DNA from: an uncultured Eubacteriales bacterium
GTDB taxonomy: Bacteria; Bacillota; Clostridia; Christensenellales; CALVMC01
Direction of reading: 5' to 3'
DNA length: 64,000 nucleotides
Assembly (NCBI GenBank): GCA_949296455.1
Contig: CASFOZ010000005.1
Span: forward strand, 1-64,000
The notes below the pieces were generated by a model. The model made no database searches and was not told where the DNA came from. It saw only the letters and a list, made by a program, of their open reading frames with translations. This document shows positions 754 to 26,737 of the stretch, in pieces; within the stretch, counting starts at the first letter, position 1, and each line of letters begins with the position of its first letter. The position numbers were made by a program, and so were the translations under genes.

Positions 754-782
754 TTGACTTTAAATCTTTTTAAAGTTATAAT
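754..782 (+). promoter_or_regulatory. Sigma-A type promoter (TTGACT-17-TATAAT) for giant-protein pair 1
   Basis: ttgact at 754-759, a 17-nt spacer, tataat at 777-782. A nearly identical element (ctattgacttta...) lies upstream of the second pair. RBS aaggagag precedes the ATG at 851. Confidence 0.7.
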
Positions 783-850: not shown

Positions 851-3800
851 ATGAAAAAAAGCAAATTATTAACAGGCTCTGTACTTTTTGTAATAATTTC
901 TGCGATACTTGCGCTATTATTTACAAACAGTTACATTTCCGTTAAATCAACATCGAATTATATAAATTCAATCGGCGCAGAGGTTGCGGCAGGGGAAGTT
1001 TATATAAACAAAACAGGGGATACAGACAAAATATCCACAATACAAGGTAAGCAAAATTCTTATTCCTGGCTGGATATCTCTATTCCGGACGATGAGAGAC
1101 CGGAAGGAAGAGGAAACAACGACTCTCATTATATCATTGAAAATTCAGCGCAGCTCAGATGGCTTTCTCACAGGATAGGATTCGGGGGAAGCGGTTCGAA
1201 TAATAATATATATGTAGATTTAGCAGCGGATATCGATATGAGTACCGTTACAACGAAAGCAGTGGTCAATACGGCTGCTTTATCGCATAACGGTTATTAT
1301 AATACAAACGGCGTGCACAGTCCACTGAATGCCGACTATTTGGCTTGTACCGATTTTATAGATGTTGAAGTCGGCGAACAAATCGACGCTTCGGTTTATA
1401 GTTATTATCAAAAATCAAGCAGCGCTTATTTTTATACGATTTTAACTTTTGACGAACAAAAAAATTTATTACAGAATAAGATTAAAGCTTTCAACCTAAA
1501 ATATAACGGTAACGGGTCCACTCAGAGCACCTGGTTCACTGTACCCGAGGGAGTTGCCTATGTTAAATTACAAATAGGCAATACACAATCTATGCTTATC
1601 AATGAGACTGAGCTGACTTATACAATTTATAATCCCGACAGCACTCAAGAAAATACATACAACATGCATTCGTGGCTTCCGATAGGTAATGCTTCTAAGC
1701 CGTTTTCGGGATATTTCGACGGGAAAAATTATACAATTTCCAATTTAACAATCAGCACCGAAGTGCTTAATTCCGATATAAATAACTATGTAGGTTTCGG
1801 TTTATTCGGAACGGTTAAAGCCGGTGAGTTCAGAAATTTAAATATAATTAACAGCGCAATCGAAAGTTTAAATAAAACAACCGATGTTTATGTAGGCTTA
1901 TTTGCGGGACAAAGTACGGCAGGAAGCGGATTTTACGATATAACCGTAGGCTCTCAAGGTGCGGCCGGTGAAGAGTTTTCTTATGTAATAGGCGATTTTA
2001 CCTCTAATTCAAGGGTTGGCGGCGTTATAGGATACGGTAAGGGTTACTTTGCAGAAAGGCTTACAAATTATGCCCTTGTAAAGAGCGACTCTGTATTTAC
2101 GGGGGGAGTCTCGGGAGAGTTCGAAGGTCTTACGCAATATGAAACGAATGATATAAAAGTTTTAAAAAATTACGGATTGGTAACGAAAGACAGCGGCAAT
2201 CCGAACAATGGCGGCGTAATCGGTTATGCGTATCGTGTTAAAATATCTGACTGCATAAATTACGGTTCGGTAGTAGGATATACCTCGGGCGGAGTTATAG
2301 GAAGAATTTCAGACGGAACGGTATCGAGATGTGTTAACTACGGGGACTATGTCGAAGGAGCTATAGGAATAGGCGGCGTTTTAGGCAGAATACATACCGG
2401 TCAATCGGTAACGGTAAGCGAATGTTTGAATTACGGACTTATAAGGACTGCGTCTTCGGTCACCGAGCTTTCTTCAAGCACAACTTTAGGTATAGGCGGT
2501 ATAGTGGGAATAATAGACCAGGAAAGCAGTGCGACAAGGTATAAAACCGTATCCAATTGCAAGAACTACGGCGAAGTCAAAGACGAGTACAAGACAAATA
2601 CCATAAGAATGGGCGGCGTTGTAGGTCAGGCCTCTTCGGCTGATGTAAAAGAGTGTGAAAACAACGGATATATACATTCGTCAAACGCAGCCGAGGTCGG
2701 AGGAGTTTTAGGATATGCCGCAAGAACAGGAATAACAAGATGTTTTAATAACGGCGAAGTTTCCGGTGATACCTTTGTCGGCGGAATATTCGGAAATTTC
2801 GGCGGTTCGAGTTTCGACACAACCATAAGCGACTGTTATAACGAAGGAGATATAACGGCAACCGGGGCAAGCGGCAGCGGCGAAGGATACGCCAGCGCAG
2901 TAGCAGGCGGAATAGCCGGCAGGTACGATGCTTCGGGCAGGACAAACTCGACCTTTTTAAGATGCGTCAATATAGGTTCTGTCAGCGGTAACAATGCAGG
3001 CGGAATAGTAGGAAGTGCTTGGCAGTTAAATGCTAAAATGATAGATAATTATACATTAATGCAAGACTGTTACAACAAAGGCGCAGTAAACGGTGCTAAT
3101 TATGCAGGCGGTATATTCGGAACGATAATTTCGTCAAGTTATCATAAAGCGGGAACAATACTGATTAAAAATGTTTACAATTCCGGCACGGTTACATTGA
3201 ATTACGGGACGAATAAAGGAACGCTTGCAGGAAATGTATCTCTTCAAGCGGCTGACGAGCCCTTGCTCGAAGTCAGCAATTTTTATGCTTATTCAGAAGA
3301 TGGAACAACACAGAATAATGTAGGAGCGTCAAGCAGCGCAATTACCGTCACGAATTCCAATGTTAACATATCGGGTACGGTGGACGAGTCGGATTTTGCA
3401 GGTTTCGATTTCGGAGCGGACGAAACATGGGGATTGGTATCCACATATAATAACGGACTTCCTTATTTAAGAGCAATCGACGAAATTAATCTTACATTCA
3501 ACTACAACAGAAGCGGCATTGCAAGCGAGAGCATAGTAATACTGTATGGCGACGGCAATTACACGGTAAACAGCGAAGATTACAACGAAAAGGCAAATTA
3601 CAGATATCTTGTAGATTATTGGACTTTAAGCAGCGACGGTAGCGGTACGCAATACGGAGTGGAAAGCAAACTTCCGATAGAAAGGCTCAGGGATATAGAA
3701 ATATTTGCAAATTATGTTGCCGCACCTTACAGAATAAAGATAGAAGGAATAACTCAAACAATCAGCGGCGCTCTTAAAGAAACAAGCACCGATACCGAAG

Positions 3801-6157
3801 TTCCGACAAAAGAATCAAGCGAAACTTCAAAAACATATCAGGGAACATACACGATAGACAACGCTTCCTCTTACATTCTTGTGGCGTCAGGCGACAGTAC
3901 GGTAAGCGGCACTGATTACAACTTTGCAGGCTGGAATGTTTTAACTTCCGACGGAACATATTCGCCCGTCGCATACGGAAACGGAAATACGACAATATCG
4001 CTCAGCGAAGTTTTCAACAATATGATAGAAGGCTGGGATACCGACGGAGTTATAACTTTGGTTCCGAAAACCGGCAGCATTATCTACCTCGATTTTATGG
4101 TCGAAGGAGAAGAGCACGGTGCAATTCAAGTCAACGGAAGCACTATGGAGTTCGGAGGCAGAGAGTCGGCTTATGCAGGAATAAACTATATTATCAATTC
4201 TACCTTACAAAACTACTATGAAGTAGAAAAATATACTATAAGTTATCCTGAGGTTACAGGACAAGACGCAAAAGTCGAAGAGAAGACAACAAGGTCTTTC
4301 GAACTCAATTTAATTTCGGCTTACGAAGGTTCGGCAATTACAATTACGGTTAAATACAGACCTATGGATATAAGCTTTAACCTTTATGCGGTTGATTCCA
4401 ATTTGGCTTCCATAGGGAACGCAAGCGATTATGCAAGTTTGATTTCGGGAACCGTTGCAATAAACGGAATGTTTTCCGACGATATAAACATTTATGAATC
4501 GGAAAGATATAGATTTTCAGAAATGATAATAGTAAACAGAAGGACTTCCGAAAATCTCGTTTACAGCGCAGACGAACTTAATATGAGCACGGTTGAAGAT
4601 AATCCACAGTATGTGTTCGATAACGGTCTCATTACTTTCGACGAAACCAATCTTTATAATTACGCTTATAATAACGAAATCGTAATATATCTTGTCTACG
4701 AACAATACTATCTTATTAATTTTTCCGTTAATTCGGGCGGTTATGCTTTCTTATATGTAGATAACGGCTCAGGTTATACCGAAGTTTCGCTTATCGGTAT
4801 CAATATCGCAGAAGAAAATGAACCGGTAAATATTTTATACGAAGATTCCGTATATGTTAAAGGAAATTCGAGTATAAAAATCGAGGCATTTTCTTATGAC
4901 GCTTACGAGTTTTCAAACTACGATGTAATTCAGGGACCTTTGTATACAGTTATCGGTTCTCAGATGAATCTCGTAGCAAGTGAAGATGTCGAAATAGATG
5001 TTGTATTTGCCTTTGAAACTTATACTTTAAGGTATCTCGCAAAGACCGATACCGGTTCCAACATAAGTTCGATAGACGGCGGCTTCTATGTAAACGGCGA
5101 GCCCGGCAATGTGGTCAAACTCGGCGACATAGTTACTTTCGTGCTTCCCGAAGCTACAAAATATAAATTTACAGGTCTTAAAATAACTTTAAGAAACGGC
5201 GCCGAAACGGATATAGATTATAATACCTTAAAATCTTTCGAAGTGACCAACGAGTTTATCAATTCATACTTCGACAGCAAATCGGTTTCCACCGTAACCG
5301 CTACTTTTATAAGACAAAGACTTTTCAGTATCAGTACCGATTCAAAGGACGGCTCTTATGAAAGTATCAGCTGTTATGTCGTAAACGGCAGTGTGGAAAC
5401 GCCTTTCGAAGCGGTTTTAGGCGTTACTTATAATTTCGACGCAAATACCGTTATTAAAATTGTCGCAACGCCTGCAAAATATTACGAGTTTGTCGGATTC
5501 AAAGGTCAGATTGCTTCAAGCGAACTTACCGAAAACGACAATATCGTAAATATTAAATTAAATGCAGACCGTGTTATCCTTGCTTCTTTCAAAGCTACCG
5601 AATTCAATATCGAAGTTGTGGACGGTTCGGGCAAGGTTGACGGAGACTTTTCCGCAAATTCCAAAACTGCGGTAATAGGCGATAAAATCATTCTTACCTT
5701 CTCGCCTAAAACAGGCTACGCAATCGGAGATTGGACGGTTAACGGTATAGATGTAATGTCTTCCGATTTGCAGGAGAACATAGTATTTTCAGGAAATACC
5801 GTAACTATAACTCTCGATAAAAACTGGCTCGACACCTTTACCGACAATACAATAACGAGCGTCGTTAAAACTACGCTGTCGCCTCTTATCTTAGGTATCG
5901 TTATAGGAGGAAGTTTAGGAGTAGTTATCCTCGTTGCCGTTCTTATTGTGCTGATGATACTTTCTCAGAAACAGAATAAGAAAATTAAAGAAGAACTTCT
6001 CGAAGAAAACAAAGAAAAAATGAAGTTCGTCAGCGAAAGCAATATAGTAAGCAGATTAAGAGCGGGCGAAAATGTTACGCAAATCAGTGACGAAGATATA
6101 AAAGCTTTCAAAAAGGCTAAAAAGGCTGCAAAAAAAGCCGCTAAAAAAGATGAATAA
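851..6157 (+). CDS. Giant surface protein A1 (1768 aa). It has an N-terminal signal/anchor helix and a GLUG-like Cys-ladder beta-helix repeat region. Listeria-Bacteroides/InlB-B-repeat-like and Ig-like modules follow, then a C-terminal TM helix and a Lys-rich cytoplasmic tail.
   Basis: Uninterrupted 5.3-kb ORF with an RBS. The N-terminus MKKSKLLTGSVLFVIISAILALLF is hydrophobic. Motifs YIIENSAQL...DIDMS and PFSGYFDGKNYTISNLTI are present. About 10 rungs of C-x-N-Y-G-x-V-x-G...VGG(I/V)(I/L/V)G, plus FAGFDFGADETWG...NNGLPYL. The C-terminal half has repeated ~90-aa modules (V-DGSGKV...GD.I.LT.SP..GY.I..WTVNG). The C-terminus is LILGIVIGGSLGVVILVAVLIVLMIL followed by KQNKKIKEELLEENKEK...KKAKKAAKKAAKKDE. 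Confidence 0.9.
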   Translation: MKKSKLLTGSVLFVIISAILALLFTNSYISVKSTSNYINSIGAEVAAGEVYINKTGDTDKISTIQGKQNSYSWLDISIPDDERPEGRGNNDSHYIIENSAQLRWLSHRIGFGGSGSNNNIYVDLAADIDMSTVTTKAVVNTAALSHNGYYNTNGVHSPLNADYLACTDFIDVEVGEQIDASVYSYYQKSSSAYFYTILTFDEQKNLLQNKIKAFNLKYNGNGSTQSTWFTVPEGVAYVKLQIGNTQSMLINETELTYTIYNPDSTQENTYNMHSWLPIGNASKPFSGYFDGKNYTISNLTISTEVLNSDINNYVGFGLFGTVKAGEFRNLNIINSAIESLNKTTDVYVGLFAGQSTAGSGFYDITVGSQGAAGEEFSYVIGDFTSNSRVGGVIGYGKGYFAERLTNYALVKSDSVFTGGVSGEFEGLTQYETNDIKVLKNYGLVTKDSGNPNNGGVIGYAYRVKISDCINYGSVVGYTSGGVIGRISDGTVSRCVNYGDYVEGAIGIGGVLGRIHTGQSVTVSECLNYGLIRTASSVTELSSSTTLGIGGIVGIIDQESSATRYKTVSNCKNYGEVKDEYKTNTIRMGGVVGQASSADVKECENNGYIHSSNAAEVGGVLGYAARTGITRCFNNGEVSGDTFVGGIFGNFGGSSFDTTISDCYNEGDITATGASGSGEGYASAVAGGIAGRYDASGRTNSTFLRCVNIGSVSGNNAGGIVGSAWQLNAKMIDNYTLMQDCYNKGAVNGANYAGGIFGTIISSSYHKAGTILIKNVYNSGTVTLNYGTNKGTLAGNVSLQAADEPLLEVSNFYAYSEDGTTQNNVGASSSAITVTNSNVNISGTVDESDFAGFDFGADETWGLVSTYNNGLPYLRAIDEINLTFNYNRSGIASESIVILYGDGNYTVNSEDYNEKANYRYLVDYWTLSSDGSGTQYGVESKLPIERLRDIEIFANYVAAPYRIKIEGITQTISGALKETSTDTEVPTKESSETSKTYQGTYTIDNASSYILVASGDSTVSGTDYNFAGWNVLTSDGTYSPVAYGNGNTTISLSEVFNNMIEGWDTDGVITLVPKTGSIIYLDFMVEGEEHGAIQVNGSTMEFGGRESAYAGINYIINSTLQNYYEVEKYTISYPEVTGQDAKVEEKTTRSFELNLISAYEGSAITITVKYRPMDISFNLYAVDSNLASIGNASDYASLISGTVAINGMFSDDINIYESERYRFSEMIIVNRRTSENLVYSADELNMSTVEDNPQYVFDNGLITFDETNLYNYAYNNEIVIYLVYEQYYLINFSVNSGGYAFLYVDNGSGYTEVSLIGINIAEENEPVNILYEDSVYVKGNSSIKIEAFSYDAYEFSNYDVIQGPLYTVIGSQMNLVASEDVEIDVVFAFETYTLRYLAKTDTGSNISSIDGGFYVNGEPGNVVKLGDIVTFVLPEATKYKFTGLKITLRNGAETDIDYNTLKSFEVTNEFINSYFDSKSVSTVTATFIRQRLFSISTDSKDGSYESISCYVVNGSVETPFEAVLGVTYNFDANTVIKIVATPAKYYEFVGFKGQIASSELTENDNIVNIKLNADRVILASFKATEFNIEVVDGSGKVDGDFSANSKTAVIGDKIILTFSPKTGYAIGDWTVNGIDVMSSDLQENIVFSGNTVTITLDKNWLDTFTDNTITSVVKTTLSPLILGIVIGGSLGVVILVAVLIVLMILSQKQNKKIKEELLEENKEKMKFVSESNIVSRLRAGENVTQISDEDIKAFKKAKKAAKKAAKKDE

Positions 6158-6172
6158 TAAGGGGACGGTAAT

Positions 6173-9100
6173 ATGAATAAGAATTATAGTTTAAATAAGA
6201 GTTTAAGTAAAATATTATTTATTGCATTAGTTTTATTCCTTGCGGTTGCCCTTGCAGTTTGCACGGCTGTATCCGGCACGGGAAGTTTGATTGTTTCGGA
6301 AAATAAGGTAACTACAAATTCCGAAAATACTTCCACCATATACGGCGCAGATATAACGGAATACGACGGAACCGTCAGCGCAGCGGTGCAGGAAGATTTC
6401 GACGACGCTAATCTTGCAGGCCGTTGGCAGGGCACGATAGACACTGCCTACGACCCTTCTTCCGAGACGGTGAACGCAGGACAAGACGGCAGCTTTGCAA
6501 AACCGTACTATATCGAAACTGCCGAACAATTAATTAATGTTATAAACAACGCTTCTTCAAAAAGCGGCTCAGAATATACGGACGCTGCTTATAATAATGC
6601 GGACACCTACTTCATAATTAAAAATGATATCGATTTAGGCTCTAAAATGTATGCCGTTTCCGACCAGTCAAGAGCGCTATTCAATATCACCGGTTACGAT
6701 TACACGGCGCTTTCTGGCTATGAAGACTTTGCGACAAGCACAGGCTTTACCGACGGAGGAAACAATTATTCCGATACCGAAAATCCTTTTAAGGCAATTA
6801 AAAAATATCTTGACGACAAAAATATCGGAGAATCTGTTTCCGATATTCAGCAAACCGGCAACGATTTTGCAACGATATATAACTTATATATCGAACCGGA
6901 AAGCTCTTCAAACACAATAGAAGTCGGTCTCTTTAATTTATTCAACGCAAGTGCGTTAGGTATAAATATTTATAACGCTTATGCAAACAACAGTCTTGCT
7001 TTCGATAATTTCGGCTTTTTTGCAGGCGCAAGCACAACCGATGCGTATTTTGCCAAAATAAATATAAAAGGCGCTACCTTTGTTTATGGCGACTCTTATT
7101 CTTCAAGGTCAATAGGCGGTATTTTGGGAAGAGCGCAAGACGGTCATTCGGTAACTTTCGACTCGGTAGGGTTCGAAGGCGGAATAATTGCCGCAGGTAT
7201 AAGACATATCGGCGGTATGGTAGGTTATGTATATACAGGTACAAATCTCACTTTTACGGGAACCAATGAAACTTACGGTAAAATAAGCGCACAGCGGGAG
7301 AGCGGCGGTTTTGTAGGATATGTCGAGTCGAGCAATCTTGTTTTCGAATCGAATAACACCAACAATATCGATATCGACACAACCAACAATGCAGTCGGCG
7401 GCTTTGTCGGATTGCAATCTGAAGGTTCTTTGTCATTCACCGGCAGCAGTAAAAATCTCGGAACGGTAAGAGGGTATAGTTATGTAGGCGGCTTTGTAGG
7501 TTCTTTGGCTGCAAGAAATGTTACCATAACAGGCGGCGTTAACGGCTATAACGGCGGCGCTGCGGACGATACTCTTGTAGAAAAATATAACGATCCTAAT
7601 TCCGCAATAGAGGCAAGCAATATATATGTAGGCGGTTTTATCGGCCGTTTAAGAAGAGCGGAAGCGGTTTTAAGTATTACTAACTCTCATAACTATATGG
7701 TTTTAAAGAATGTTGCAGGAGTTGCGCCAAGTACGGCTTACGGCGGTATAGTCGGCGAGTTCGAGGGGGCTTCCGCAACAATTGAAAATTGCATAAACCA
7801 TGCAGATATCAATAATTTTTATAAGACAGCAGACGGGGCTCAAAGCAATGCCGTGGGCGGAATTGTCGGTAGTTTAAGAGCGGATTTTGTAATACAAAGC
7901 TGCAAAAACTACGGGGATATCAAATCTCATATGAGAGTGGGCGGTATTGCAGGTCTTGCAAACTATAACAATACTTCCGTGAAAATTTACGACAGTATAA
8001 ATTACGGAACTATTTACGCAACAGGATATGACGCAGCGGGAATATTTGCTTCGGCTTATGCAAATATTTATCCTATAAGAATAGAAAGATGCGAAAACTA
8101 CGCTTCAATTTATGTTTCGCCCACAATGAATTTGGCGGGAACCGCAAAACAGGACGGCAGTGTATACAGCGACGAAGAAGCTTTTGAGGTGACGACGGAC
8201 GACAAAAATACGAAATACAAAGATACTCCTACCGTTGCGGGCGGAATACTCGGCTACTATAAGCATTTGACAAACGAAGTAGACGGAGTTTATGTTATAG
8301 ACTGCGTCAACGGAACATCCGAAACACAAAACAAAATTAAAGTTTACGGAAGGAATGTAGGCGGTATTGTCGGAGGTAACGGAAGAAATGCCGCAAATAT
8401 AAACTTTACTATAAATCTCATAAATAATACTAACTATATGGATGTCCACTCAGGAGGCTTTGTCGGCGGTCTTTACGGATATATTACAGGCTATACAAAC
8501 CTTACTATCGGTAACCCGAGTTTCGATGAAGGGTATCAAAAAATATACGGAAACTTCGGCACGGTTTACTCTTATGTCGGCGGCGACGCAAATATAAGCG
8601 CAGATACGGGTAGTTTGATAGGTAAAATAGGCGGATACCTTAAACTTGTCGGTAAAAACGATTATATAAACGATACCGTTGTTAACAGCGAAAATGTCTG
8701 CGTAGGCGGAATTATAGGTTATATGACTTTAACATATTCCGAGTCGGTTGATTTATGCGCAAACTGGGGCAACGAAGAAACCATTAATGGTGGCAGAACC
8801 CATGTAGGTGGAATTTTAGGAGGGTACACAGGTGGCAGTGTAAAAATAACCGGTCAAATGTATAATACGGGCGAGGTTATCTGTCAATATGGAACCTCTT
8901 ATATAGGCGGACTTATTGGAAGAGCTTTAGGTGCATTAACTATAAGCGCCAAAGTTTATAATGAAGGGAATGTTTACAGTCAGCTTAAAACCACGGACGC
9001 ATCTTACGGTACAGTATCAGGCAGTATAGGCGGACTTATCGGCTCTATGGAAAACAATATTGAATTCACAGAAGGCGCCGCAGGCTCTTATAACAGCGGT

Positions 9101-13594: not shown

Positions 13595-13627
13595 TTGCTT
13601 TTAATTAAAAAATTGTATTTAGTATAT

Positions 13628-13656
13628 AGCCCGGTAGACTTACCGGGCTTTTACTT
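13628..13656 (+). terminator. Possible intrinsic terminator after B1 (weak T-run)
   Basis: Hairpin agcccggta-gact-taccgggct is followed by ttttactttaat. Confidence 0.45.
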
Positions 13657-13772
13657 TAATATGGTATATTTAATTTACCGTTTATTTTTTATCGGCTTAT
13701 TTAAATTAGTCTGTCTGAATTGTCATTTTTTTACTTATTACAATATTAATTTAACTTTAAAAAATATATAAT

Positions 13773-13794
13773 ATCGTTACAAAACGATTTTTTT
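13773..13794 (+). terminator. Intrinsic terminator after B1
   Basis: atcgtt-acaa-aacgat stem-loop followed by tttttt. Confidence 0.6.
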
Positions 13795-13854
13795 GCTTAC
13801 AAAATCTTTTTCTTTATCTTGTAATTTTTGGAATATTTTGTTTATTAGGTATCT

Positions 13855-13883
13855 ATTGACTTTATTTATAATAGATATTATAA
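13855..13883 (+). promoter_or_regulatory. Sigma-A type promoter (TTGACT-17-TATAAT) for giant-protein pair 2
   Basis: ttgact at 13855-13860, a 17-nt spacer, tataat at 13878-13883. It shares the ctattgacttta core with the 754-782 promoter. RBS aaggag precedes the ATG at 13945. Confidence 0.7.
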
Positions 13884-13944
13884 TATACTTACTGATAGTA
13901 TTGCTAAAATACTGTTATACAATTCTATATAAGGAGTTGTTATT

Positions 13945-19257: not shown

Positions 19258-19274
19258 CAGGAGGCAGGATAATT

Positions 19275-22200
19275 ATGAAAGGAAATTATTTTGCACATAG
19301 AAAAATATTTAAATTATCAGTAATATTATTGGTGCTTTCAATTTTAATTGCACTTTTTACAGGTGTACTGTTTGCAAATAAAGATAATTATTTTATAACA
19401 AATAATTCTTATTCGGAAATAGATACAGAAAATACCGGAACGATTTACGGTGGAAGCATTACCGAGTATAACGGAACCGTAAGTTCTGCAATTTCCAATG
19501 CTTACACTGCAGCTAAAAATGCCGGTAATTGGCAGGGTTCAATAAATACATCATACAATCCTGCAAGCGAAAGCATAAACTCGGGAAGAGCAGGAACTTT
19601 TACTCAGCCTTACTATATCGATACGGCAGATCAGCTCGTAAAAGCCATTAACAACGCTTCTACAAAAAGCGGTTCCGATTATACTTACGCAAGTTATAAT
19701 AATGCAAATACATACTTTGTTATAAGAAAAGATATTGATCTTGCTTCAAAATTATATATTGTATCCAATCAGTCAAAAGTTAATTTCAATATATCAGGTT
19801 ATGACTATACTGCAATAAGCGGATATGCAAATTTTGCTACATCGACAGGTGTGCAAAGAGACGGAAAAACATATTCTAATACAACCGATCCGCTCAGAGC
19901 AGTTAACGAATACTTAAAAGATAATAATATATTTGATAATGTATCTTCGATAAATGCGACAGGTAATACATTTAAGACTATAAGTAATTTATATTTGGGG
20001 TTTGCTTCTAATAACGGTTTGTTCAACGAATTGGAAGGGAGCGTTTTAGCATTGAATTTTTATAATGTATATTATAATGGAACAGGAAGCAATCTCAACT
20101 TTTTAGGAGCGTTAGCAGCAAAGAAATACGGGTATTCGGTAGCAAGCGTTAATGTAAGGGGGCTTACTTTTAACATAAGCGGAGGTACTTCATCTGGAAA
20201 TAGCGGATATGGCGGAATTTTAGGGTTTGCAACAAATGGCGGACTTATAGATAATTCTGGTTTCGAAGGAGGATTAATTGCAACAAGTCTAAGAAATGTA
20301 GCAGGTATTGTAGGCTTAACAGATACTAATTTTGACGGTTCTTTTGTCGACAATACAGTTTATGGAAATATTTTATCCGGTAGAGGTAATACCGGAGGTT
20401 TAGTAGGATATCTACAAGGGAATTGCGAATTTAGCGGGACTAATATCAATAATGCAGATATCGAATCGAATTCGGGCTCTTTAGGCGGTATAATTGGAAT
20501 TTTTTCGGGAAGTTCTACAAGTTTACAAATAAGCGGAAACACTAAAAATTTAGGAAATATTCGAGGAACCAGTTCGGTAGGCGGAATAATAGGAACGGTA
20601 AGAGGATATGTAATTATGTCTGATGCCGTAAACGGTTATAACGGCGGTGCCTCAGACAATAATTCAGTAGGAAATTATTGCGATCCTAATGCAAGCATTC
20701 AAGCTTCCGGAAGCGGCGTTGGTGGACTTTTTGGATATGTGTATAGCCAAATTGAAATTAGTAATTGCCATAATTTTATGGAAATCATGTCAGGGCCCAA
20801 ATACGATGTAGGAGGATTAATGGGTATAATTCAAAGCGGTAGCGTTATAGATTCCTGTGTTAACCACGCAGATATATCAATGTTCGACATTTCAAATCTG
20901 GGCGGAATAGTAGGAGTACTCTACGGAGACTCTGAAATTAAAAATAGTGTAAATTACGGAAATATTTCAGCTAAATCAAACGCAGGCGGAATAGCCGGCA
21001 TATCTTATGCTACTATAGAAAATCAAGTATTTAGTGGGTGTAAAAACTATGGAACAATTGCATGTATATCAGGAAGAGCGGCAGGAATCTTTGCTGCGGT
21101 TCATTCTACTGTTAATAATTTAATTATAGAAAACTGTTCTAATTTCGGCTCGGTTTATAACGCTTCTACTATGAACAAGGTAGGAACTGCGAAACCGGGC
21201 GGCGGCACCTACTCTTACGAAGAGGCTTTTAAAGAAAGTTCTTACTCTGCAGCAGCTGCATATGTGGCAGGCATTTTAGGTTATTACGATAATTTTAATG
21301 TAACGGGAGGGGTTACTGTACAAAACTGTACTAACGGAACCTCAGGGACAAACAGTGTGATCAAATCGTCTTATCGCTATATAGGCGGTATTGTCGGAGG
21401 TAGCGGTCTTGCGGAGGACGGAACAGGTACTTTATACGATAATTTCTTTATAACCTTAAAAAATAACACAAATTATATGGATATCTCGGGTTGCGGGTAT
21501 GCAGGCGGACTCTACGGTCATATGAGAGGAAAAATTAAACTTACCATAGGGAACCCCGATATAGATACCAAAACTTACGGAAATTTCGGAACAATAACTT
21601 CTTTTCATTCAACAAGTGCCGATATAGGTTCTATTGCAGGTTGTATAAGGGGAACTCTCGACCTTGTAGGAGACAATGCTTATAAAAATGAAGAAACAAT
21701 CGAGACAAGCGAAGCGGCTACAACCGCAGGTGGTATAATAGGATTTATAGAAGGCACGGGCAGCAATACAATAGAGCTCAGCGCCAACTGGGCAAACGAA
21801 GCCGATATCGTAACCGGCAGAAGTTATGTCGGAGGAATAATCGGCGGAACCAGCAGAGCAAACTTTGTAATTTCCGGCGCAATGTACAATACAGGAGATA
21901 TCATTTGTAAAGCGGGAACAACTTATATAGGCGGTTTGTTTGGCAGCATGGCTTTGTCTCTTAGCATAAAAGCTTATATTTATAACGAAGGTAATGTTTA
22001 CAGTCAGCTCAAAACCACTGACAGTACGGTCAGCAGTGCTTCGGGAAGCATAGGCGGAATTGTCGGAAATGTAGGCGGTAAACTTGAATTTACACAAAGC
22101 GCCGCAGGCTCTTACAACAGCGGTATAGTTTACGCCAATTTCAGAAAGGTCGGCGGTATTGCAGGTAATGTGGGCGGTACGGTATCGATGACCGGAGTTA

Positions 22201-25200
22201 TCAGTGACGAAAATGAAAAAATAAAAGATAAACAATATCCCACAATAAACATTTACAAACCGGGAAGCGATGATGCAGAAGTAGTTACAGTTCTTTCAAC
22301 GGTTTTTGCAGAAGCCTATGCCGGAGGATTTATAGGATATATGACAGGGACGACCGCAAGCTTTACGAACTGTATCAATTACGCTTCCGTTTACTGTACG
22401 GCAAACGATGTCGCAGGCTTTATCGGACAGGGTAATTCTATTACAAGTTTAAGCATGGTTAACTGCAAAAATTACGGCGATATCGCAACCCAGGCTTCGT
22501 GGGCGGGCGGTTTTACCGGTGGCGCACCTCTTGGAGTATATGTAGAAAACTGTGCAAATTACGGTAATATTTCAACTCGTATGAGTCAAAGTGCGGCAGG
22601 TTTCTTCTCGGGAATAGGTTTTAACGATAAAACAGCTTATTCGGTAACTATTAAAAACTCCTTTAACGCAGGTAACATAGCGGGCGCTCTTACAACGGGC
22701 GGACTCATAGGTTATATAAGAAACGCTGAAACCGTCGAAATTACTGACTCATACAGTACGGGCAATGTTTCTGTTGAAAGTGTCGGGACGGGTATTCAGG
22801 CTAGATCGATGGGCGGACTTATTGGTCATGCCGAAAGATTCAATTCCTTAACGCTCAGCAATTGTTATGTGGATTGCGAGAAAGTAGGCGACATAAGCTC
22901 TTTACGAATCGGAGGATTAGTCGGGTATATTTATTACGCAAAGGCGGGTACTGTAAATATCAATAACTGTTATGTGGATATCGATACCATTGTTTCATCG
23001 AGAGATGTAAGCGGAAGTATCGGGGGTATTTCATCTAACGCAAATATTGACAGCAGATTTATTATGAAAGACTGTTATTTTGCGGGCGAATCAATTACCG
23101 GTCAGACCATTGCAGGCGGAATTTTAGGTTTTACCGATGGGCTGAGAGAGATAACCGTTCAAAGAGTTGCTTGTCTTTACTTTGGAATCGAAATTACGAC
23201 AGCAGGAAAGGCTGTTTCAGCTCTTGCTCAGAGTCTTTATGATGTTTCAGGCACCGTTCTTTTCGAAGATATTTATGTAACCAGCAAATTGATTGCGGCA
23301 AACGGGACAGGAGATGTTTCATTGTTTGTAGAATATTTAGAATTTGACAATGCTTACCGAGATTTAAGCGTAACAATTAAAAATTATTATTTCAGCGGAA
23401 ATCCCCAAGATTTCGACTATTTTCAAGGAAGTGAAGATTCAAGCGCAAAAAATAATTATTATAAAGGGAATGTATCGGCAAAACACGCAAATTATTTCGG
23501 CGCAATTGACAATAACAGTAACGGAACGAGTTACAAAAAAACACTCAGTATTCACGATACCTATATAACAAAACTTTCGCAGACCATATCTTTCGACGAA
23601 ATAGGCGGTTCTTCTAATTTTTCCTCAACTTCGGCAGCTGACTTCAACCCGTCTTCAACAAATAACTGCGATTATGAGTTCGGTACGGGAACCGATAATC
23701 TGTTTGTAAATTACAGCGATTTACAAAATATCGATAATTTTAACGGATGGGGAGTTACTCAAGATGTAAGAAGCGGCAGTGCAAACACTTCTTCCACGCC
23801 GTGGGGAATCGACGCTGCCGTAAACGACGGTAAGCCCTTCCTTATCGTTGCAACGATGAAAGAGATCAATATATACTACAATAACATCGGCGACGATCTC
23901 GATATATTCGATAACTCGATTATAAGAAATGTCGATGAAAGGAATAACGAGACCGTAGTTAGTATTATAAGTTATTTTTCCGATACTTTATCTTACAATG
24001 ATATTAAAAACGGCAAACAGGACGACAGCGGTTATAGTTATATCAATGAAATAAAAAGAGTCGGTTATAATGTCAGCGAATTATATAAAGCAAGACAAGA
24101 AAACGGTTCCTATTTAGCAAGCGATAAATATACGGAAATGCCCGTTTCATCGCCGGATAAAGTAATGACATTGAGAAACGGAGCCGATATATATATTTCA
24201 TATTCTGCGATAGAATATACTATAATTATTCCTAACGGCGGTGCGGTTAATGTTGCAGGCGCTGCAAATAATAAATTTACCATAGATAATTTAAGCGGAA
24301 TTAGTATAACGAATAATAATGAAGGACAGTCTTCCTCGTTTGTATATTTTGCGTTACAGAATATAGACGGCGAATACGATTCCGTTGGCGAGAGCAGTAT
24401 GGTTCTTATTGAGGGTTCTCAGGGGACGACAAGTGCGGTATATAAATTGAATTTCGAAGCTTTTATCAACCAACAGCTCATACACAACTATGCAAAATCT
24501 TCCGGTGGTAATATGTCTCTTACCTTTAAGGCTATGTTTATCGAAGTATACGAGGTAACTTTCAATTTATCGGCTGATACCTTCCCGTCCTATGTTACCG
24601 TAATTAATTCAAGCGGAGTATCGGTAGATTTCGGAAATACGATAAGTATCGAAGCGGGAAAACAGGAAACATACACTATTATATTAACAAAGCATTACGA
24701 GCTAGAAAAAGGACCCGTAGATGAATCAACCGGTTCTCCGATAGAAGGAAATACCGCAAATTATAATTACGATAAAACAAAAATGGTTCTTACTATAACC
24801 AATACCAATGCAAACGAAAAATATAATTTTACTATCTATGTTCAGGCAATAGAATATACGGTAGAATACAAATTATATAACACTTCGGGCGAGATATTAA
24901 TGCCGGAGCCGGGCGATATAACATTGGCGACGGAAAGTGCGGTTGTTACGGTAGGAAACGTAATCAGTGCGCAGAATATTTCCATAAATCCGGACAGCGT
25001 CTATAAGTTCGTTACATACAGATACCGTTATACCGAAAACGGCAATGTTAAAACCGAAGATATAGATACGCAGGGCTCGACTGTTTTAGGAACTATTGTT
25101 TGTACTGCCGATTATCTCGATAAATATGTAACCGACGGCAAAATTGTATTTGAGATAATATTCGAGTCAGACGCAACTTTAATTTTAACTATCGGCAATA

Positions 25201-26639
25201 TTGCAGATTGGGACAATGATTACGGTTCGGTAATAATAAATATTTATGATGAAAATTATGTAATGCAGTCAACCGAAACTGTATCAAGGCTTATCAGCGA
25301 GTTCGAACAATCCTTCGACGTCGGATTTATTATAGAGATAATTCCGTGGGTTAATAATCATTTCGAAATAACTGCCTTTACATTGAACGGCGAAAATACC
25401 GAGCTTATTAACGAGAAATTAACCTTGCAGTTAGACTCAAACAAAACCGTCAATATAGAAATGGATTATATCAAGTACGGTATAAGATATTCTATAGTCG
25501 ATGAAAATCATACCGAAATCGACGGCGTTATGGATAATGTTACAATAGAGCTTGAAACAGGACTCGATTATATCACGGCAAGAGGAGACAATGTCACGGG
25601 TCAGATTAGTGAGATTGCAGGTTACGGATTCAATTCTTGGGGAATTTACTATATGGGTGAATTTATCCCATTCAGCGCAAGCGACTATTCGACGGACGGT
25701 TCTCTTAACAGTGCCGAAATAACTCTTTATATATTAGATAATTATATCGACGACAACGGCGAACTGGTAATAGCTAGCAGATTATATACTTTGTTCGATA
25801 TCGATGTTGTGCTTGCCGATATCGGAGACGATTTAGGCGAATTCGAAATCAGAATTTATAACGATATTTTAGACGAATACGGCGACCCTGTGAATATCGA
25901 AGATATCGAAAGTATGCCTTATCTTACTTTGATTAAAGTTACTGCTCTTCCCGGAGAATATTACGATTTCAGACAGTTTATCGGAATATCCGAAGATGAA
26001 ATCAATCAGGAAGATTCTAATATCGCAGAATTCTATCTTACCGAATCGAGAACGGTTATGCTGTATTTCGAAGCAAGACCTATAGCAATTTCAGTTATTG
26101 AAGATTTAACCAGTGCTTCCGGTGAATTGGTTGTTTCAAATTCAAGCGGCAACACCGACAGCTGGAAAGCAGGTGACACTTTGTCATTTACTTTCAACGG
26201 CGCTTTCGGTCAGGAAATCAAAAGCTTCAGCTTCAACGGAATGGACGCAAAAGAATTGTCAACTACTTATGAAAATATAAACTATGCTAACGGAATCCTT
26301 ACGGTTACAATGACTGCCGAATTCCTTGAAACATTGGAAAATAATGATTTCAATATATCCGTTACTTCTCAAATCGGAACGATTTATCTTATAATGTTGT
26401 TAAGCATTATAATTATTCCGATAGTACTAACTATTTTGATTTTGATTTTCGTGATAATCAACATCAAGAGAAGAAAGAAAGCTATGGAAATTGTCGCTCA
26501 AAGAAAAGCTTCAAAATCAAGATTCGAAGCTTCCAATATGGTAAGCGAACTCAGACAAGGTACTTATAAACAGGCAGACAGAAGCGTTTCCAAAGAAGAA
26601 ATCGAGCGTCAGCTTAAAGCAAGAAAAGATAATAAGTAA
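19275..26639 (+). CDS. Giant surface protein B2 (2454 aa), a paralog of B1
   Basis: Starts 17 nt after A2 with RBS aggagg. Collinear with B1 (NWQGSINTSYNPASE, the Cys-ladder rungs, NFNGWGVTQDVRSGSANTSSTPWGIDAAVNDGKPFL). The C-terminal TM plus tail (IKRRKKAMEIVAQRKASKSRFEASNMVSELRQGTYKQADRSVSKEEIERQLKARKDNK) is nearly identical to that of B1. Confidence 0.9.
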   Translation: MKGNYFAHRKIFKLSVILLVLSILIALFTGVLFANKDNYFITNNSYSEIDTENTGTIYGGSITEYNGTVSSAISNAYTAAKNAGNWQGSINTSYNPASESINSGRAGTFTQPYYIDTADQLVKAINNASTKSGSDYTYASYNNANTYFVIRKDIDLASKLYIVSNQSKVNFNISGYDYTAISGYANFATSTGVQRDGKTYSNTTDPLRAVNEYLKDNNIFDNVSSINATGNTFKTISNLYLGFASNNGLFNELEGSVLALNFYNVYYNGTGSNLNFLGALAAKKYGYSVASVNVRGLTFNISGGTSSGNSGYGGILGFATNGGLIDNSGFEGGLIATSLRNVAGIVGLTDTNFDGSFVDNTVYGNILSGRGNTGGLVGYLQGNCEFSGTNINNADIESNSGSLGGIIGIFSGSSTSLQISGNTKNLGNIRGTSSVGGIIGTVRGYVIMSDAVNGYNGGASDNNSVGNYCDPNASIQASGSGVGGLFGYVYSQIEISNCHNFMEIMSGPKYDVGGLMGIIQSGSVIDSCVNHADISMFDISNLGGIVGVLYGDSEIKNSVNYGNISAKSNAGGIAGISYATIENQVFSGCKNYGTIACISGRAAGIFAAVHSTVNNLIIENCSNFGSVYNASTMNKVGTAKPGGGTYSYEEAFKESSYSAAAAYVAGILGYYDNFNVTGGVTVQNCTNGTSGTNSVIKSSYRYIGGIVGGSGLAEDGTGTLYDNFFITLKNNTNYMDISGCGYAGGLYGHMRGKIKLTIGNPDIDTKTYGNFGTITSFHSTSADIGSIAGCIRGTLDLVGDNAYKNEETIETSEAATTAGGIIGFIEGTGSNTIELSANWANEADIVTGRSYVGGIIGGTSRANFVISGAMYNTGDIICKAGTTYIGGLFGSMALSLSIKAYIYNEGNVYSQLKTTDSTVSSASGSIGGIVGNVGGKLEFTQSAAGSYNSGIVYANFRKVGGIAGNVGGTVSMTGVISDENEKIKDKQYPTINIYKPGSDDAEVVTVLSTVFAEAYAGGFIGYMTGTTASFTNCINYASVYCTANDVAGFIGQGNSITSLSMVNCKNYGDIATQASWAGGFTGGAPLGVYVENCANYGNISTRMSQSAAGFFSGIGFNDKTAYSVTIKNSFNAGNIAGALTTGGLIGYIRNAETVEITDSYSTGNVSVESVGTGIQARSMGGLIGHAERFNSLTLSNCYVDCEKVGDISSLRIGGLVGYIYYAKAGTVNINNCYVDIDTIVSSRDVSGSIGGISSNANIDSRFIMKDCYFAGESITGQTIAGGILGFTDGLREITVQRVACLYFGIEITTAGKAVSALAQSLYDVSGTVLFEDIYVTSKLIAANGTGDVSLFVEYLEFDNAYRDLSVTIKNYYFSGNPQDFDYFQGSEDSSAKNNYYKGNVSAKHANYFGAIDNNSNGTSYKKTLSIHDTYITKLSQTISFDEIGGSSNFSSTSAADFNPSSTNNCDYEFGTGTDNLFVNYSDLQNIDNFNGWGVTQDVRSGSANTSSTPWGIDAAVNDGKPFLIVATMKEINIYYNNIGDDLDIFDNSIIRNVDERNNETVVSIISYFSDTLSYNDIKNGKQDDSGYSYINEIKRVGYNVSELYKARQENGSYLASDKYTEMPVSSPDKVMTLRNGADIYISYSAIEYTIIIPNGGAVNVAGAANNKFTIDNLSGISITNNNEGQSSSFVYFALQNIDGEYDSVGESSMVLIEGSQGTTSAVYKLNFEAFINQQLIHNYAKSSGGNMSLTFKAMFIEVYEVTFNLSADTFPSYVTVINSSGVSVDFGNTISIEAGKQETYTIILTKHYELEKGPVDESTGSPIEGNTANYNYDKTKMVLTITNTNANEKYNFTIYVQAIEYTVEYKLYNTSGEILMPEPGDITLATESAVVTVGNVISAQNISINPDSVYKFVTYRYRYTENGNVKTEDIDTQGSTVLGTIVCTADYLDKYVTDGKIVFEIIFESDATLILTIGNIADWDNDYGSVIINIYDENYVMQSTETVSRLISEFEQSFDVGFIIEIIPWVNNHFEITAFTLNGENTELINEKLTLQLDSNKTVNIEMDYIKYGIRYSIVDENHTEIDGVMDNVTIELETGLDYITARGDNVTGQISEIAGYGFNSWGIYYMGEFIPFSASDYSTDGSLNSAEITLYILDNYIDDNGELVIASRLYTLFDIDVVLADIGDDLGEFEIRIYNDILDEYGDPVNIEDIESMPYLTLIKVTALPGEYYDFRQFIGISEDEINQEDSNIAEFYLTESRTVMLYFEARPIAISVIEDLTSASGELVVSNSSGNTDSWKAGDTLSFTFNGAFGQEIKSFSFNGMDAKELSTTYENINYANGILTVTMTAEFLETLENNDFNISVTSQIGTIYLIMLLSIIIIPIVLTILILIFVIINIKRRKKAMEIVAQRKASKSRFEASNMVSELRQGTYKQADRSVSKEEIERQLKARKDNK

Positions 26640-26660
26640 TTATAGCGATTCAATAGAAAA

Positions 26661-26687
26661 ACTCCGAAAAATTCGGAGTTTTTTTAT
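26661..26687 (+). terminator. Rho-independent terminator after B2
   Basis: actccgaa-aaa-ttcggagt perfect hairpin followed by ttttttt. Confidence 0.85.
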
Positions 26688-26737
26688 TGCAAATTTTTAT
26701 TAATATAATTAAATTAATAATTTTTTTGCTTATATCT

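Follow-up and report, generated by a model that had tools for sequence, protein, structure and literature searches.

A duplicated pair of giant beta-helix genes with a conserved membrane anchor and tail, coding for putative fibrillar adhesin-like surface proteins in an uncultured Eubacteriales bacterium

Genes, signals and domains of the locus

Four very large genes follow one another on the + strand in the order A1-B1-A2-B2, coding for proteins of 1768, 2473, 1770 and 2454 aa. Their positions and lengths had been called correctly in a preliminary description of this DNA, and the frames are free of internal stops. The genes lie in a window of 64,000 nucleotides (the whole stretch that was analysed), where they take up 25.8 kb between an rrn operon, seen as the 3' part of the 5S rRNA at positions 1-93, and the S10 ribosomal operon. 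The next operon in the window codes for an SPFH scaffold-type protein. The features are listed below.

754..782, +, promoter-like site P1 (TTGACT-17-TATAAT) 5' of A1; consensus pattern match only, 11/12
851..6157, +, A1, 1768 aa: signal/anchor, cap, beta-sandwich insert, beta-helix, stalk, TM helix, tail
866..931, +, A1 N-terminal hydrophobic segment, aa ~6-27, either a Sec signal peptide or a signal anchor that stays uncleaved; KD19 maximum 2.69
1253..1660, +, A1 inserted beta-sandwich domain, aa ~135-270, CBM/lectin-like (suggestive only); predicted model, pLDDT ~70-80
1688..3400, +, A1 right-handed beta-helix, aa ~280-850, ~12-14 rungs with GG-h-h-G and C-x-N-x-G
3428..3469, +, A1 helix-end cap motif WGLVSTYNNGLPYL; invariant throughout the A family
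3473..5860, +, A1 stalk, aa ~875-1670, chain of all-beta, Ig/pilin-like domains, with matches to Flg_new_2 (InlB B-repeat) among them
5879..5965, +, A1 C-terminal TM helix, aa 1677-1705
5966..6154, +, A1 cytoplasmic tail, aa 1706-1768, A-type motif; from alignment and a tail-only HMM (E 1.1e-16)
6173..13594, +, B1, 2473 aa: signal/anchor, long beta-helix, stalk, TM helix, tail; zero Pfam domains
7070..10732, +, B1 beta-helix region, aa ~300-1520, 27 rungs by count of GG-h-h-G; fold predicted by homology to A and P0012
10751..10792, +, B1 cap motif WGIDPSVNEGKPFL
10793..13312, +, B1 stalk, aa ~1541-2380, collinear with the A stalk in the A1/B1 alignment
13328..13417, +, B1 C-terminal TM helix, aa 2386-2415
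13418..13591, +, B1 cytoplasmic tail, aa 2416-2473
13628..13649, +, terminator-like hairpin 3' of B1
13856..13884, +, promoter-like site P2 (TTGACT-17-TATAAT) 5' of A2; consensus match only, 11/12
13945..19257, +, A2, 1770 aa, A1 paralog; TM helix 18982-19068, tail 19069-19254
19275..26639, +, B2, 2454 aa, B1 paralog; TM helix 26373-26462, tail 26463-26636
26651..26689, +, terminator-like hairpin 3' of B2

The gaps between A and B are 15 and 17 nt and the B starts are preceded by the ribosome-binding sites AAGGGGA and AGGAGG, which bears out the proposal that the genes form two A-B operons. A promoter for each pair and terminators after each pair had also been claimed; the corresponding sites are found at the expected places, as consensus matches only. 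The -35 and -10 of P1 and ~330 nt upstream are kept in another strain. Repeats of AAATTCAAAT upstream of A1 were set aside, their frequency across the window being no higher than chance.

The head of the A proteins was modelled as a right-handed parallel beta-helix resembling the N-domain of IgA1 protease, the closest fold matches being the non-catalytic N-domains of IgA1 proteases and 3n6z. The beta-helix head proposed earlier is thereby supported for A, and by homology for B. There are ~12-14 rungs in A and a predicted ~30 in B. Each A protein has 12 copies of GG-h-h-G and each B protein 21-27; for C-x-N-x-G the counts are 8-9 (A) and 6-9 (B). The shared W-G...N-G motif that had been pointed out was recovered as a cap (W..N-G-x-P-[YF]-[LI]), present once in each of the four proteins. 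The rungs had been called GLUG-like, a description that holds for the fold and for distant homologs, in which the Pfam GLUG model (PF07581) is present, but not for the four proteins themselves: the model has zero matches in them at E<=0.1, or in their segments at E<=10. A search of PDB sequences with A1 and B1 gave nothing at E<=1. The beta-sandwich insert is found in the A proteins only; its Foldseek matches (CBM22, CBM4, CBM6, CBM86 and lectinolysin; probability 0.7-0.9, E 0.02-0.2, non-significant) make a CBM/lectin-like nature suggestive only. No curated adhesive domain was matched by either the beta-helix head or this insert.

The stalk comprises ~800 aa and is of matched length in A and B. 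The preliminary description had named Flg_new and InlB B-repeat domains for checking, and PF18998 (Flg_new_2) was indeed found above its gathering cut-off of 23.6 bits in A1 (26.5 bits; 38.3 bits on the A1 segment alone) and A2 (27.1 bits), with no match in B1 or B2. At E<=10, the stalk and N-terminal segments gave PF18998 in A1 and no other Pfam match. Proteins with the Listeria-Bacteroides repeat (Flg_new, Flg_new_2) include adhesin-like proteins of gut methanogens. An iterated HMM search for internal stalk repeats, seeded with the last domain, recovered only the orthologous last domain of each protein. The model of A is of low confidence for the first ~230 stalk residues and for the TM helix and tail.

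Age of the duplication and variation between strains

A1 and A2 align end to end with 53-54% amino acid identity, and B1 and B2 with 46-48%, as expected of the collinear paralogs they had been taken for. The ectodomains are nevertheless less alike than the two-thirds identity estimated previously by eye, the computed values being 46-54%. A and B are distant paralogs of each other, also as proposed, with 21-22% identity across ~1600 aa (E 1e-53 to 1e-61). The alignment of A1 317-1761 with B1 968-2473 is collinear from the helix to the C-terminus, with the C-terminal part of the B1 beta-helix aligned to the A helix.

Between the copies, synonymous sites are saturated (pS 0.71-0.72), nucleotide identity is 57-61%, and the best local stretches found in a repeat search reach 69-78% over <=300 nt. 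In the last 95 codons pS is 0.64, yet amino acid identity is 72% (A) and 85% (B). Since synonymous sites are saturated everywhere, tails included, the duplication of the A-B pair is judged to be ancient. Recent gene conversion as a source of the similar tails was rejected on this pS value and on the low identity and short length of the best repeats; because the synonymous sites of the tails are as diverged as the rest of the gene, it is purifying selection that has kept them. Identity is 18/29 (A1/A2) and 26/30 (B1/B2) in the TM helix, and 49/62 and 51/58, respectively, in the tail. The TM helices and tails, described before as almost identical between duplicates, are thus more conserved than the ectodomain, and the wording suits B alone. 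It had further been suggested that variation and recombination could draw on the duplicate. This did not hold up: recombination between copies only 57-61% identical in nucleotides is unlikely, and the four-gene order is fixed in other assemblies spanning the locus. The two pairs may have diverged enough for their binding specificities to differ.

The order A1-B1-A2-B2 was found in independent assemblies (L004/L006 in ERZ16268189 and L005/L007 in ERR10610581), in agreement with the tandem arrangement, and all four genes have intact frames in 10-14 strain variants each. When two strains were compared, the giants were 87.5-93.6% identical with dN/dS of 0.19-0.26, and L2/L3/L4 were 99.5-100% identical; RpoB variants of the species are 98-100% identical to RpoB of the window, and the nearest RpoB with a name, from a Christensenellaceae MAG, is 74% identical. 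Across the orthologs (10-14 for each gene), conservation at the C-terminus is 98-100%, and variation is greatest in the N-terminal and helix windows, where B2 drops to 65-76%. The four giants are present in every strain seen. By these comparisons the four genes are judged to be real and to evolve like surface proteins. With 25.8 kb of genes and heads diversifying between strains, the four giants are likely the main interface of the cell with its surroundings, be it host, diet, phage or neighbouring cells.

Membrane anchor, tail and two-gene pairing

By hydropathy, each of the four proteins has just two hydrophobic segments, one N-terminal and one C-terminal, with a lysine-rich tail after the latter. 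This is consistent with the single C-terminal TM anchor and cytoplasmic tail proposed at the outset, the topology being deduced from the profile. With a cleaved N-terminal signal the topology would be of type I; if the segment is uncleaved, the proteins would be tethered at both ends. No wall-anchor signature had been noticed earlier, and none came to light here: there is no LPxTG-type motif within the last 150 aa of the four proteins, SLH, choline-binding and autotransporter domains have zero Pfam matches in them, and NCBIfam sorting domains gave no match. The N-terminus of B1 (LAVC) was rejected by eye as a lipoprotein signal, on account of Val at -1 and of the missing Cys in B2. Matches to TMEM154, Myc_target_1, RIFIN and AuxB fall far under their cut-offs, on the TM helix and basic tail, and were read as compositional.

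The C-terminal module consists of the last beta domain, a W-[LI]-x-x juxtamembrane motif, the TM helix, a K/R cluster and a tail of 40-65 aa with the motif h-h-x-x-L-[RK]-x-G-(K)-x-V-(G)-Q-[VI]-[TS]-x-[ED]-[DE]-[VI]-K ... K-[RK]-K. The tails of A1 and A2 match the tail-only HMM (E 1e-16 and 2e-14) and could be aligned to 15 distant members; B1 and B2 are alignable along the module but score under the A-type tail HMM. With a profile built on the last 190 aa, 1631 representatives were matched at E<=1e-3, 434 of them also at E<=1e-10. Among the 145 top representatives, 63 have a C-terminal TM helix with a tail of 20-110 aa, and 30 are matched by the tail-only HMM, at the extreme C-terminus in 28 of them. 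The last-domain profile also matches many multi-repeat Flg_new proteins. The module occurs in many 50%-identity clusters of large metagenome proteins and in many other uncultured bacteria, and a metagenome scan with a 5-sequence tail alignment yielded 6 loci. No model covering the last domain, TM helix and tail exists in Pfam or NCBIfam, tblastn against plasmids gave no match to the tail module, and the cluster records hold no names for the four proteins or the distant carriers of the module. Judged by these profiles, anchor and tail are a widespread and so far undescribed module. The conservation of the tail despite saturated synonymous divergence points to a cytoplasmic partner.

In other uncultured bacteria the anchor and tail recur mostly in two-gene pairs of this kind. 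In eight other, unrelated loci (L008, L009, L011, L015, L016, L018, L019 and L021) a short-tail, B-type gene is followed by a gene with an A-type tail, with a gap of -8 to 77 nt. In the window the order is the opposite, with A ahead of B, and P0266 (at L017), a member of the family, is without a partner gene. On this recurrence, heterotypic pairing is regarded as the conserved unit. In one clade (L008, L009, L010/L016 and L018) an identical set of five genes comes after the B-A pair, one of them for a ParM/Alp-type actin-like protein, and the cluster is kept in three different flanking contexts.

Proposed function and comparison with known systems

The locus probably holds two anciently duplicated copies of a heterotypic A/B pair of fibrillar adhesin-like surface proteins. 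Such a reading had been put forward as a candidate, and the overall architecture fits it, the term adhesin being taken from architecture alone. The proteins would be exported via Sec by the N-terminal signal or signal anchor and retained in the cytoplasmic membrane by the C-terminal TM helix and lysine-rich stop-transfer stretch that hydropathy reveals. The stalk, modelled as Ig/pilin-like and InlB-B-repeat-like domains, may span the Gram-positive wall and carry at its tip the beta-helix of the IgA1-protease N-domain/GLUG type, as modelled for A, which is the probable ligand-binding head. A and B would be co-transcribed, each pair from its own promoter, and probably act together. Selection holds the ~60-aa tail motif while the distal head diversifies between strains, and through this motif the pair may bind a conserved partner in the cytoplasm or membrane that would position or retain it or couple force and signals.

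It is unlikely that the giants are surface-displayed enzymes, i.e. beta-helix lyases, hydrolases or depolymerases, or a protease-associated trap, acting at the tip of a stalk on dietary or host glycans or the envelopes of neighbours with binding only secondary. Among beta-helices with this fold, enzymes (lyases, hydrolases and depolymerases) are as common as binders. However, sequence identity to the enzymes is 6-10% with active-site residues unalignable, and the closest folds are the non-catalytic N-domains and 3n6z mentioned above. Peptidase and other catalytic families have no Pfam or NCBIfam match in the four proteins, and HExxH is absent from all of them. A repetitive ladder of Cys, Asn and Gly is what structural helices of the GLUG type typically show.

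A transmembrane coupler, in which adhesion is half of the function and the tails link attachment outside to a cytoplasmic filament or scaffold (for motility, junctions, shape or envelope, or mechanosensing), is quite improbable. It would account for the specific conservation of the tails in distant lineages under purifying selection, and for the actin-like gene cluster behind the B-A pair in one clade; CorM, a chromosomal ParM repurposed as a cytoskeleton, provides a precedent for a ParM-derived cytoskeleton (bioRxiv 10.1101/2025.06.27.661541). In the window itself, an SPFH scaffold-type protein is encoded in the next operon. Yet the actin-like cluster has no homolog within the 64-kb window and is missing at L015, L017, L019 and L021, its actin-like protein also matches a partition protein of phages and plasmids (PHROG 691), so that lineage synteny could explain the linkage, and the SPFH operon was not found beside the distant pairs. 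The most specific form of this reading, equally doubtful, is a short-/long-tail fibre pair engaging a ParM-derived filament in one clade, and possibly SPFH here, as an integrin-like or gliding-type link that would join the cell exterior to a bacterial cytoskeleton in Clostridia.

A structural envelope, such as an S-layer-like or wall-spanning protective coat without a specific ligand, is very unlikely. Very large genes with strong consensus promoter-like sites, their core position between the rrn and S10 operons and their presence in every strain seen would suit it, and fast evolution of the head also fits phage or immune pressure; on the other hand, SLH and other S-layer domains are absent by Pfam, a stalk with a head is typical of projecting fibres rather than lattices, and one lattice would be hard to build from two diverged heterotypic pairs. 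An assembly artefact or decaying pseudogenes, conceivable for a metagenome-assembled source and genes with internal repeats, can practically be dismissed given the repeated gene order, the intact frames and the dN/dS values, and because an assembler cannot collapse or chimerise copies this diverged in DNA.

The adhesin-like pairs can be set against several known systems. In contrast to type V autotransporters, the giants have a single TM helix and lysine-rich tail and no match to a C-terminal beta-barrel. They resemble the tripartite sorting signals (LPXTG/sortase, PEP-CTERM, GlyGly-CTERM) in having a C-terminal hydrophobic helix followed by basic residues, but have no signature motif before the helix and no NCBIfam sorting-domain match, and their tail of 40-65 aa has its own conserved motif where sorting signals have a few basic residues; hence, the tail looks like part of a permanent anchor and not of a cleaved signal. 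InlB B-repeat proteins share the PF18998 matches in the A stalk, although only one or two stalk domains match, B has none, and head and anchor differ. In gut Clostridia, giant surface proteins of the beta-helix and Flg_new kinds are common, and most of them lack annotation. With the GLUG/Peptidase_M26_N beta-helix proteins of Firmicutes and Bacteroidota (7uvk, 7jgj, 3n6z) the right-handed helix fold is shared, but the giants fall below the Pfam GLUG model, are without the M26 catalytic domain, use a TM helix and long tail instead of LPxTG, and are encoded as heterotypic pairs.

By definition, a fibrillar adhesin combines an adhesive tip with a stalk and an anchor (PMC9210967). Flg_new is used in stalks, tips with a beta-solenoid are predicted, and the anchor is in many cases still unknown (PMC9210967), a known one being present in only about half of a set of known fibrillar adhesins (Monzon et al., PMC9210967). 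The giants are like them (PMC9210967, PMC8286594) in length, N-terminal distal head, Ig-like/Flg_new-type stalk, C-terminal anchor and fast evolution. They differ in having no sortase motif or known anchor domain, in stalk domains too diverged from one another for repeat detection, in the conserved ~60-aa cytoplasmic tail and in their co-transcribed heterotypic pairs. The anchor-tail module and the rule of a short followed by a long tail could provide family models for thousands of metagenomic giants now called hypothetical, and the cytoplasmic partner of the tails can be sought directly; should it prove to be cytoskeletal or a scaffold, the significance would be considerably higher.

Gene integrity and setting of the locus

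The four long open reading frames were found exactly at the coordinates of the preliminary description, whose account of the locus proved accurate.

Features of the giant-gene region (window coordinates)
1-93: 5S rRNA, 3' part
754-782: TTGACT-17-TATAAT promoter-like site (consensus scan, 11/12 matches)
851-6157, + strand: A1, open reading frame of 1768 aa
6173-13594, + strand: B1, open reading frame of 2473 aa
13628-13649: terminator-like hairpin (consensus scan)
13856-13884: TTGACT-17-TATAAT promoter-like site (consensus scan, 11/12 matches)
13945-19257, + strand: A2, open reading frame of 1770 aa
19275-26639, + strand: B2, open reading frame of 2454 aa
26651-26689: terminator-like hairpin (consensus scan)

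The A-B intergenic gaps are 15 nt and 17 nt, and AAGGGGA and AGGAGG are found upstream of the B starts. By pattern, the genes appear to form two units delimited by promoter and terminator, these sites being pattern matches that do not prove function; the first promoter region, ahead of A1, is kept in another strain. Between the rrn terminator (100-121) and A1 lies a 750-nt A+T-rich spacer (94-850) with short direct repeats, namely AAATTCAAAT (exact at 301, 441 and 455), a 26-nt unit present twice at 276-329 and a 14-nt unit repeated 2.4 times at 437-470. The frequency of AAATTCAAAT across the whole window is not above chance, and only the proximal ~330 nt of the spacer are conserved in another strain. 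An antisense frame of 208 aa with a TTG start (21609-22235, - strand) lies inside the G-rich region of B2 that encodes the rungs (beta-helix turns), and is probably a chance product of the repeat-coding strand.

The order A1-B1-A2-B2 is the same in the independent assemblies ERZ16268189 and ERR10610581, and the frames are intact in the 10-14 full-length variants found per gene in the collection; hence, an assembly artefact is excluded. Compared with strain ERZ16268189, ribosomal proteins L2, L3 and L4 are 99.5-100% identical and the giants 87.5% (A1), 88.6% (B1), 93.0% (A2) and 93.6% (B2), with dN/dS of 0.19-0.26. The giants are four intact genes under selection. Among the orthologs compared, the TM and tail end is conserved at 98-100%, and variation is greatest in the N-terminal and helix windows (B2 down to 65-76%). 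The head diversifies at strain level and the tail is conserved, the pattern expected of a protein whose exposed head diversifies and whose anchor is conserved. The locus is carried by the GTDB species representative 'uncultured Clostridia bacterium BRZ_DF__bin54'; RpoB variants of the species are 98-100% identical to that of the window, and outside the species cluster identity falls to 91%, 77% and then 73-74%, the last group including a Christensenellaceae MAG. None of the four giants is named in any source.

Downstream of the giants are an SPFH/zinc-ribbon gene, a gene for an acidic disordered protein, the S10/spc ribosomal operon, secY, carAB and rpoB. The first two form an operon (26834-32553), in which the gene for an 817-aa SPFH (Band_7_1) protein overlaps by 4 nt that for a 1089-aa acidic disordered protein. 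The SPFH protein has several zinc ribbons and ends in a long stretch that is acidic and disordered. The 1089-aa protein has no Pfam match, and about 45 aa are duplicated within it (AENENIFKNSVDEKEESEPKQEQQTFDPGAYLKN.INQNQN, twice). Between strains, both proteins change quickly (84.5% and 68.4% aa identity; dN/dS 0.20 and 0.38, respectively), and the adjoining ribosomal proteins are identical between the same strains.

Paralogy and architecture of the giants

A1 and A2 are collinear over their full length with 53-54% aa and 61% nt identity, and B1 and B2 share 46-48% aa and 57% nt identity; the earlier estimate of about two-thirds for the ectodomains was too high. Synonymous sites are saturated throughout (synonymous-site divergence pS 0.71 and 0.72; windows 0.53-0.91), and the best stretches that a repeat search found between the copies reach 69-78% identity across no more than 300 nt, so the duplication is old. 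Homologous recombination between the copies, for which they had been proposed as a substrate, is accordingly not expected. In the last 95 codons, protein identity rises to 72% (A) and 85% (B) with pS still at 0.64; the similarity of the tails is therefore due to purifying selection, and gene conversion was ruled out as its source. The suggestion that A and B are distant paralogs was borne out by 21-22% identity across about 1600 aa (E 1e-53 to 1e-61). Because A1 317-1761 aligns with B1 968-2473, B is essentially A plus about 650 N-terminal helix residues, A having an extra insert near its N-terminus.

Hydropathy analysis showed just two hydrophobic segments in each giant, one N-terminal and the other C-terminal; beyond the second come a K/R cluster and about 60 aa of tail. 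The C-terminus is a single hydrophobic helix with a basic, motif-bearing tail. The head of A is predicted to be a beta-helix and its stalk to be Ig-like, and the earlier structural reading was largely right. Stalk length is matched at about 800 aa in A and B alike, and stalk domains were too diverged to be detected as repeats of one another. The rung motif GG-h-h-G occurs 12 times in each A and 21-27 times in B, C-x-N-x-G 8-9 times in A and 6-9 times in B, and the end cap W..N-G-x-P-[YF]-[LI] once in each of the four. The sole Pfam match was Flg_new_2 (InlB B-repeat) in the A stalks, with none in B1 or B2; the proposed check against GLUG (PF07581) gave no match in the four giants. NCBIfam yielded nothing meaningful, and a PDB sequence search with A1 and B1 gave no match. 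The A-specific segment at about aa 135-270 is a predicted beta-sandwich (pLDDT about 70-80), whose Foldseek neighbours (CBM22, CBM4, CBM6, CBM86 and a lectin domain; E-values non-significant) are no more than suggestive of a CBM/lectin-like fold.

Distribution of the anchor-tail module and of pairing

Full-length relatives of the giants are strain orthologs only; the remaining matches, to GLUG and Flg_new giants, are partial and at 25-35%. The whole plan of the giants, down to the C-terminal end, recurs in three distant proteins (P0009, P0012 and P0015). A-family patterns recovered just two further GTDB species representatives, both matching at the start of the helix alone: a Bacteroidales MAG from the rumen (L002:10001-13117; 30% identity over A1 residues 285-771) and one of Mariniplasma (L003:10001-10204; 43% over 282-353). 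The helix type therefore crosses phyla.

A profile of the C-terminal 190 aa (last domain, TM and tail), run against 1.84 billion cluster representatives, gave 1631 matches at E<=1e-3, 434 at E<=1e-10 and 30 at E<=1e-30, many of which rest solely on repeated Flg_new-type domains. A C-terminal TM helix with a 20-110 aa tail was present in 63 of the 145 best new representatives, and a tail-only HMM matched 30 of the 145 (protein lengths 320-2027 aa), 28 of them at the very C-terminus. A-type tails have the consensus ...K-Y-K-x-x-T-S-S-F-I-x-D-L-R-E-G-K-[DN]-V-G-Q-V-T-D-E-D-V-K-x-E-M-K-[RK]-R-K-K (in A1, MKFVSESNIVSRLRAGENVTQISDEDIKAFKKAKK). In most lineages, B-type tails are shorter (N-N-K-K-K-A ... 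F-G-L-x-x-x-x-F-L-x-x-L), B1 and B2 carrying a fuller version (SRFEASSMVSELKKGTYQQVDRNVSKEEIERQLKARK). Eight distant carriers yielded no Pfam or NCBIfam model for the module.

Pairing was surveyed at eight loci from different assemblies (L008, L009, L011, L015, L016, L018, L019, counted together with its near-duplicate L020, and L021). In all eight, a short-tail protein is followed by an A-type-tail protein with a gap of -8 to 77 nt, the sizes ranging from about 700 + 700 aa up to 2271 + 1664 aa; in the window the order is reversed both times, with A ahead of B. In L008 and L009, the upstream protein best matches B and the downstream one A, over the full length. One family member, P0266 (L017), has no partner. 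The pairs tend to lie among core translation and other housekeeping genes and not in obvious mobile elements. The giants lie among the rrn and S10 operons (window 1-33000), and other pairs among S4-rpoA-L17 (L015:2794-14787), rimM-trmD and L19 (L019:3005-15986) and secG-rnr-smpB (L021:512-15736); the L017 singleton, unlike the pairs, adjoins an integrase, a DNA methylase and an SNF2 helicase. The anchor-tail module and pairing are widely distributed, and the locus belongs to a larger family that lacks annotation. What this analysis adds to the preliminary description is the module and the pairing rule.

At L008, L009, L010/L016 and L018, in three flanking contexts, the B-A pair is followed by a common block of five genes.

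Positions of the five-gene block
L008:17409-21148
L009:21517-25124
L010:4202-7475
L016:15015-18507
L018:14859-18465

The genes encode a protein of ~205-226 aa, a TM protein whose tail is K/E-rich, a protein of ~155 aa, a ParM/Alp-type actin-like protein and a P/Q-rich protein. The actin-like protein is 77-80% identical between loci and matches PHROG 691 'partition protein' (E 3e-41) and, weakly, CorM (E 9e-4) and Alp12 (E 4e-3) in the PDB. CorM is a chromosomal ParM turned cytoskeleton (bioRxiv 10.1101/2025.06.27.661541). None of the five genes has a homolog in the window, and the block is absent from L015, L017, L019 and L021; it serves to generate hypotheses and is no evidence on the window's locus.

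Possible roles and known systems

We infer that the giants would be exported by Sec with the ectodomain facing outside and a reach that spans the wall. The head would bind a ligand, A would cooperate with B, and the tails may have a cytoplasmic partner. Rival readings are that the giants are surface-displayed enzymes (a search for HExxH found none in the four), a transmembrane coupler or a structural coat. Among known classes the best fit is with the fibrillar adhesins, whose definition combines an adhesive tip with a stalk and an anchor (PMC9210967); the giants differ from these by their unusual anchor and two-gene organisation.
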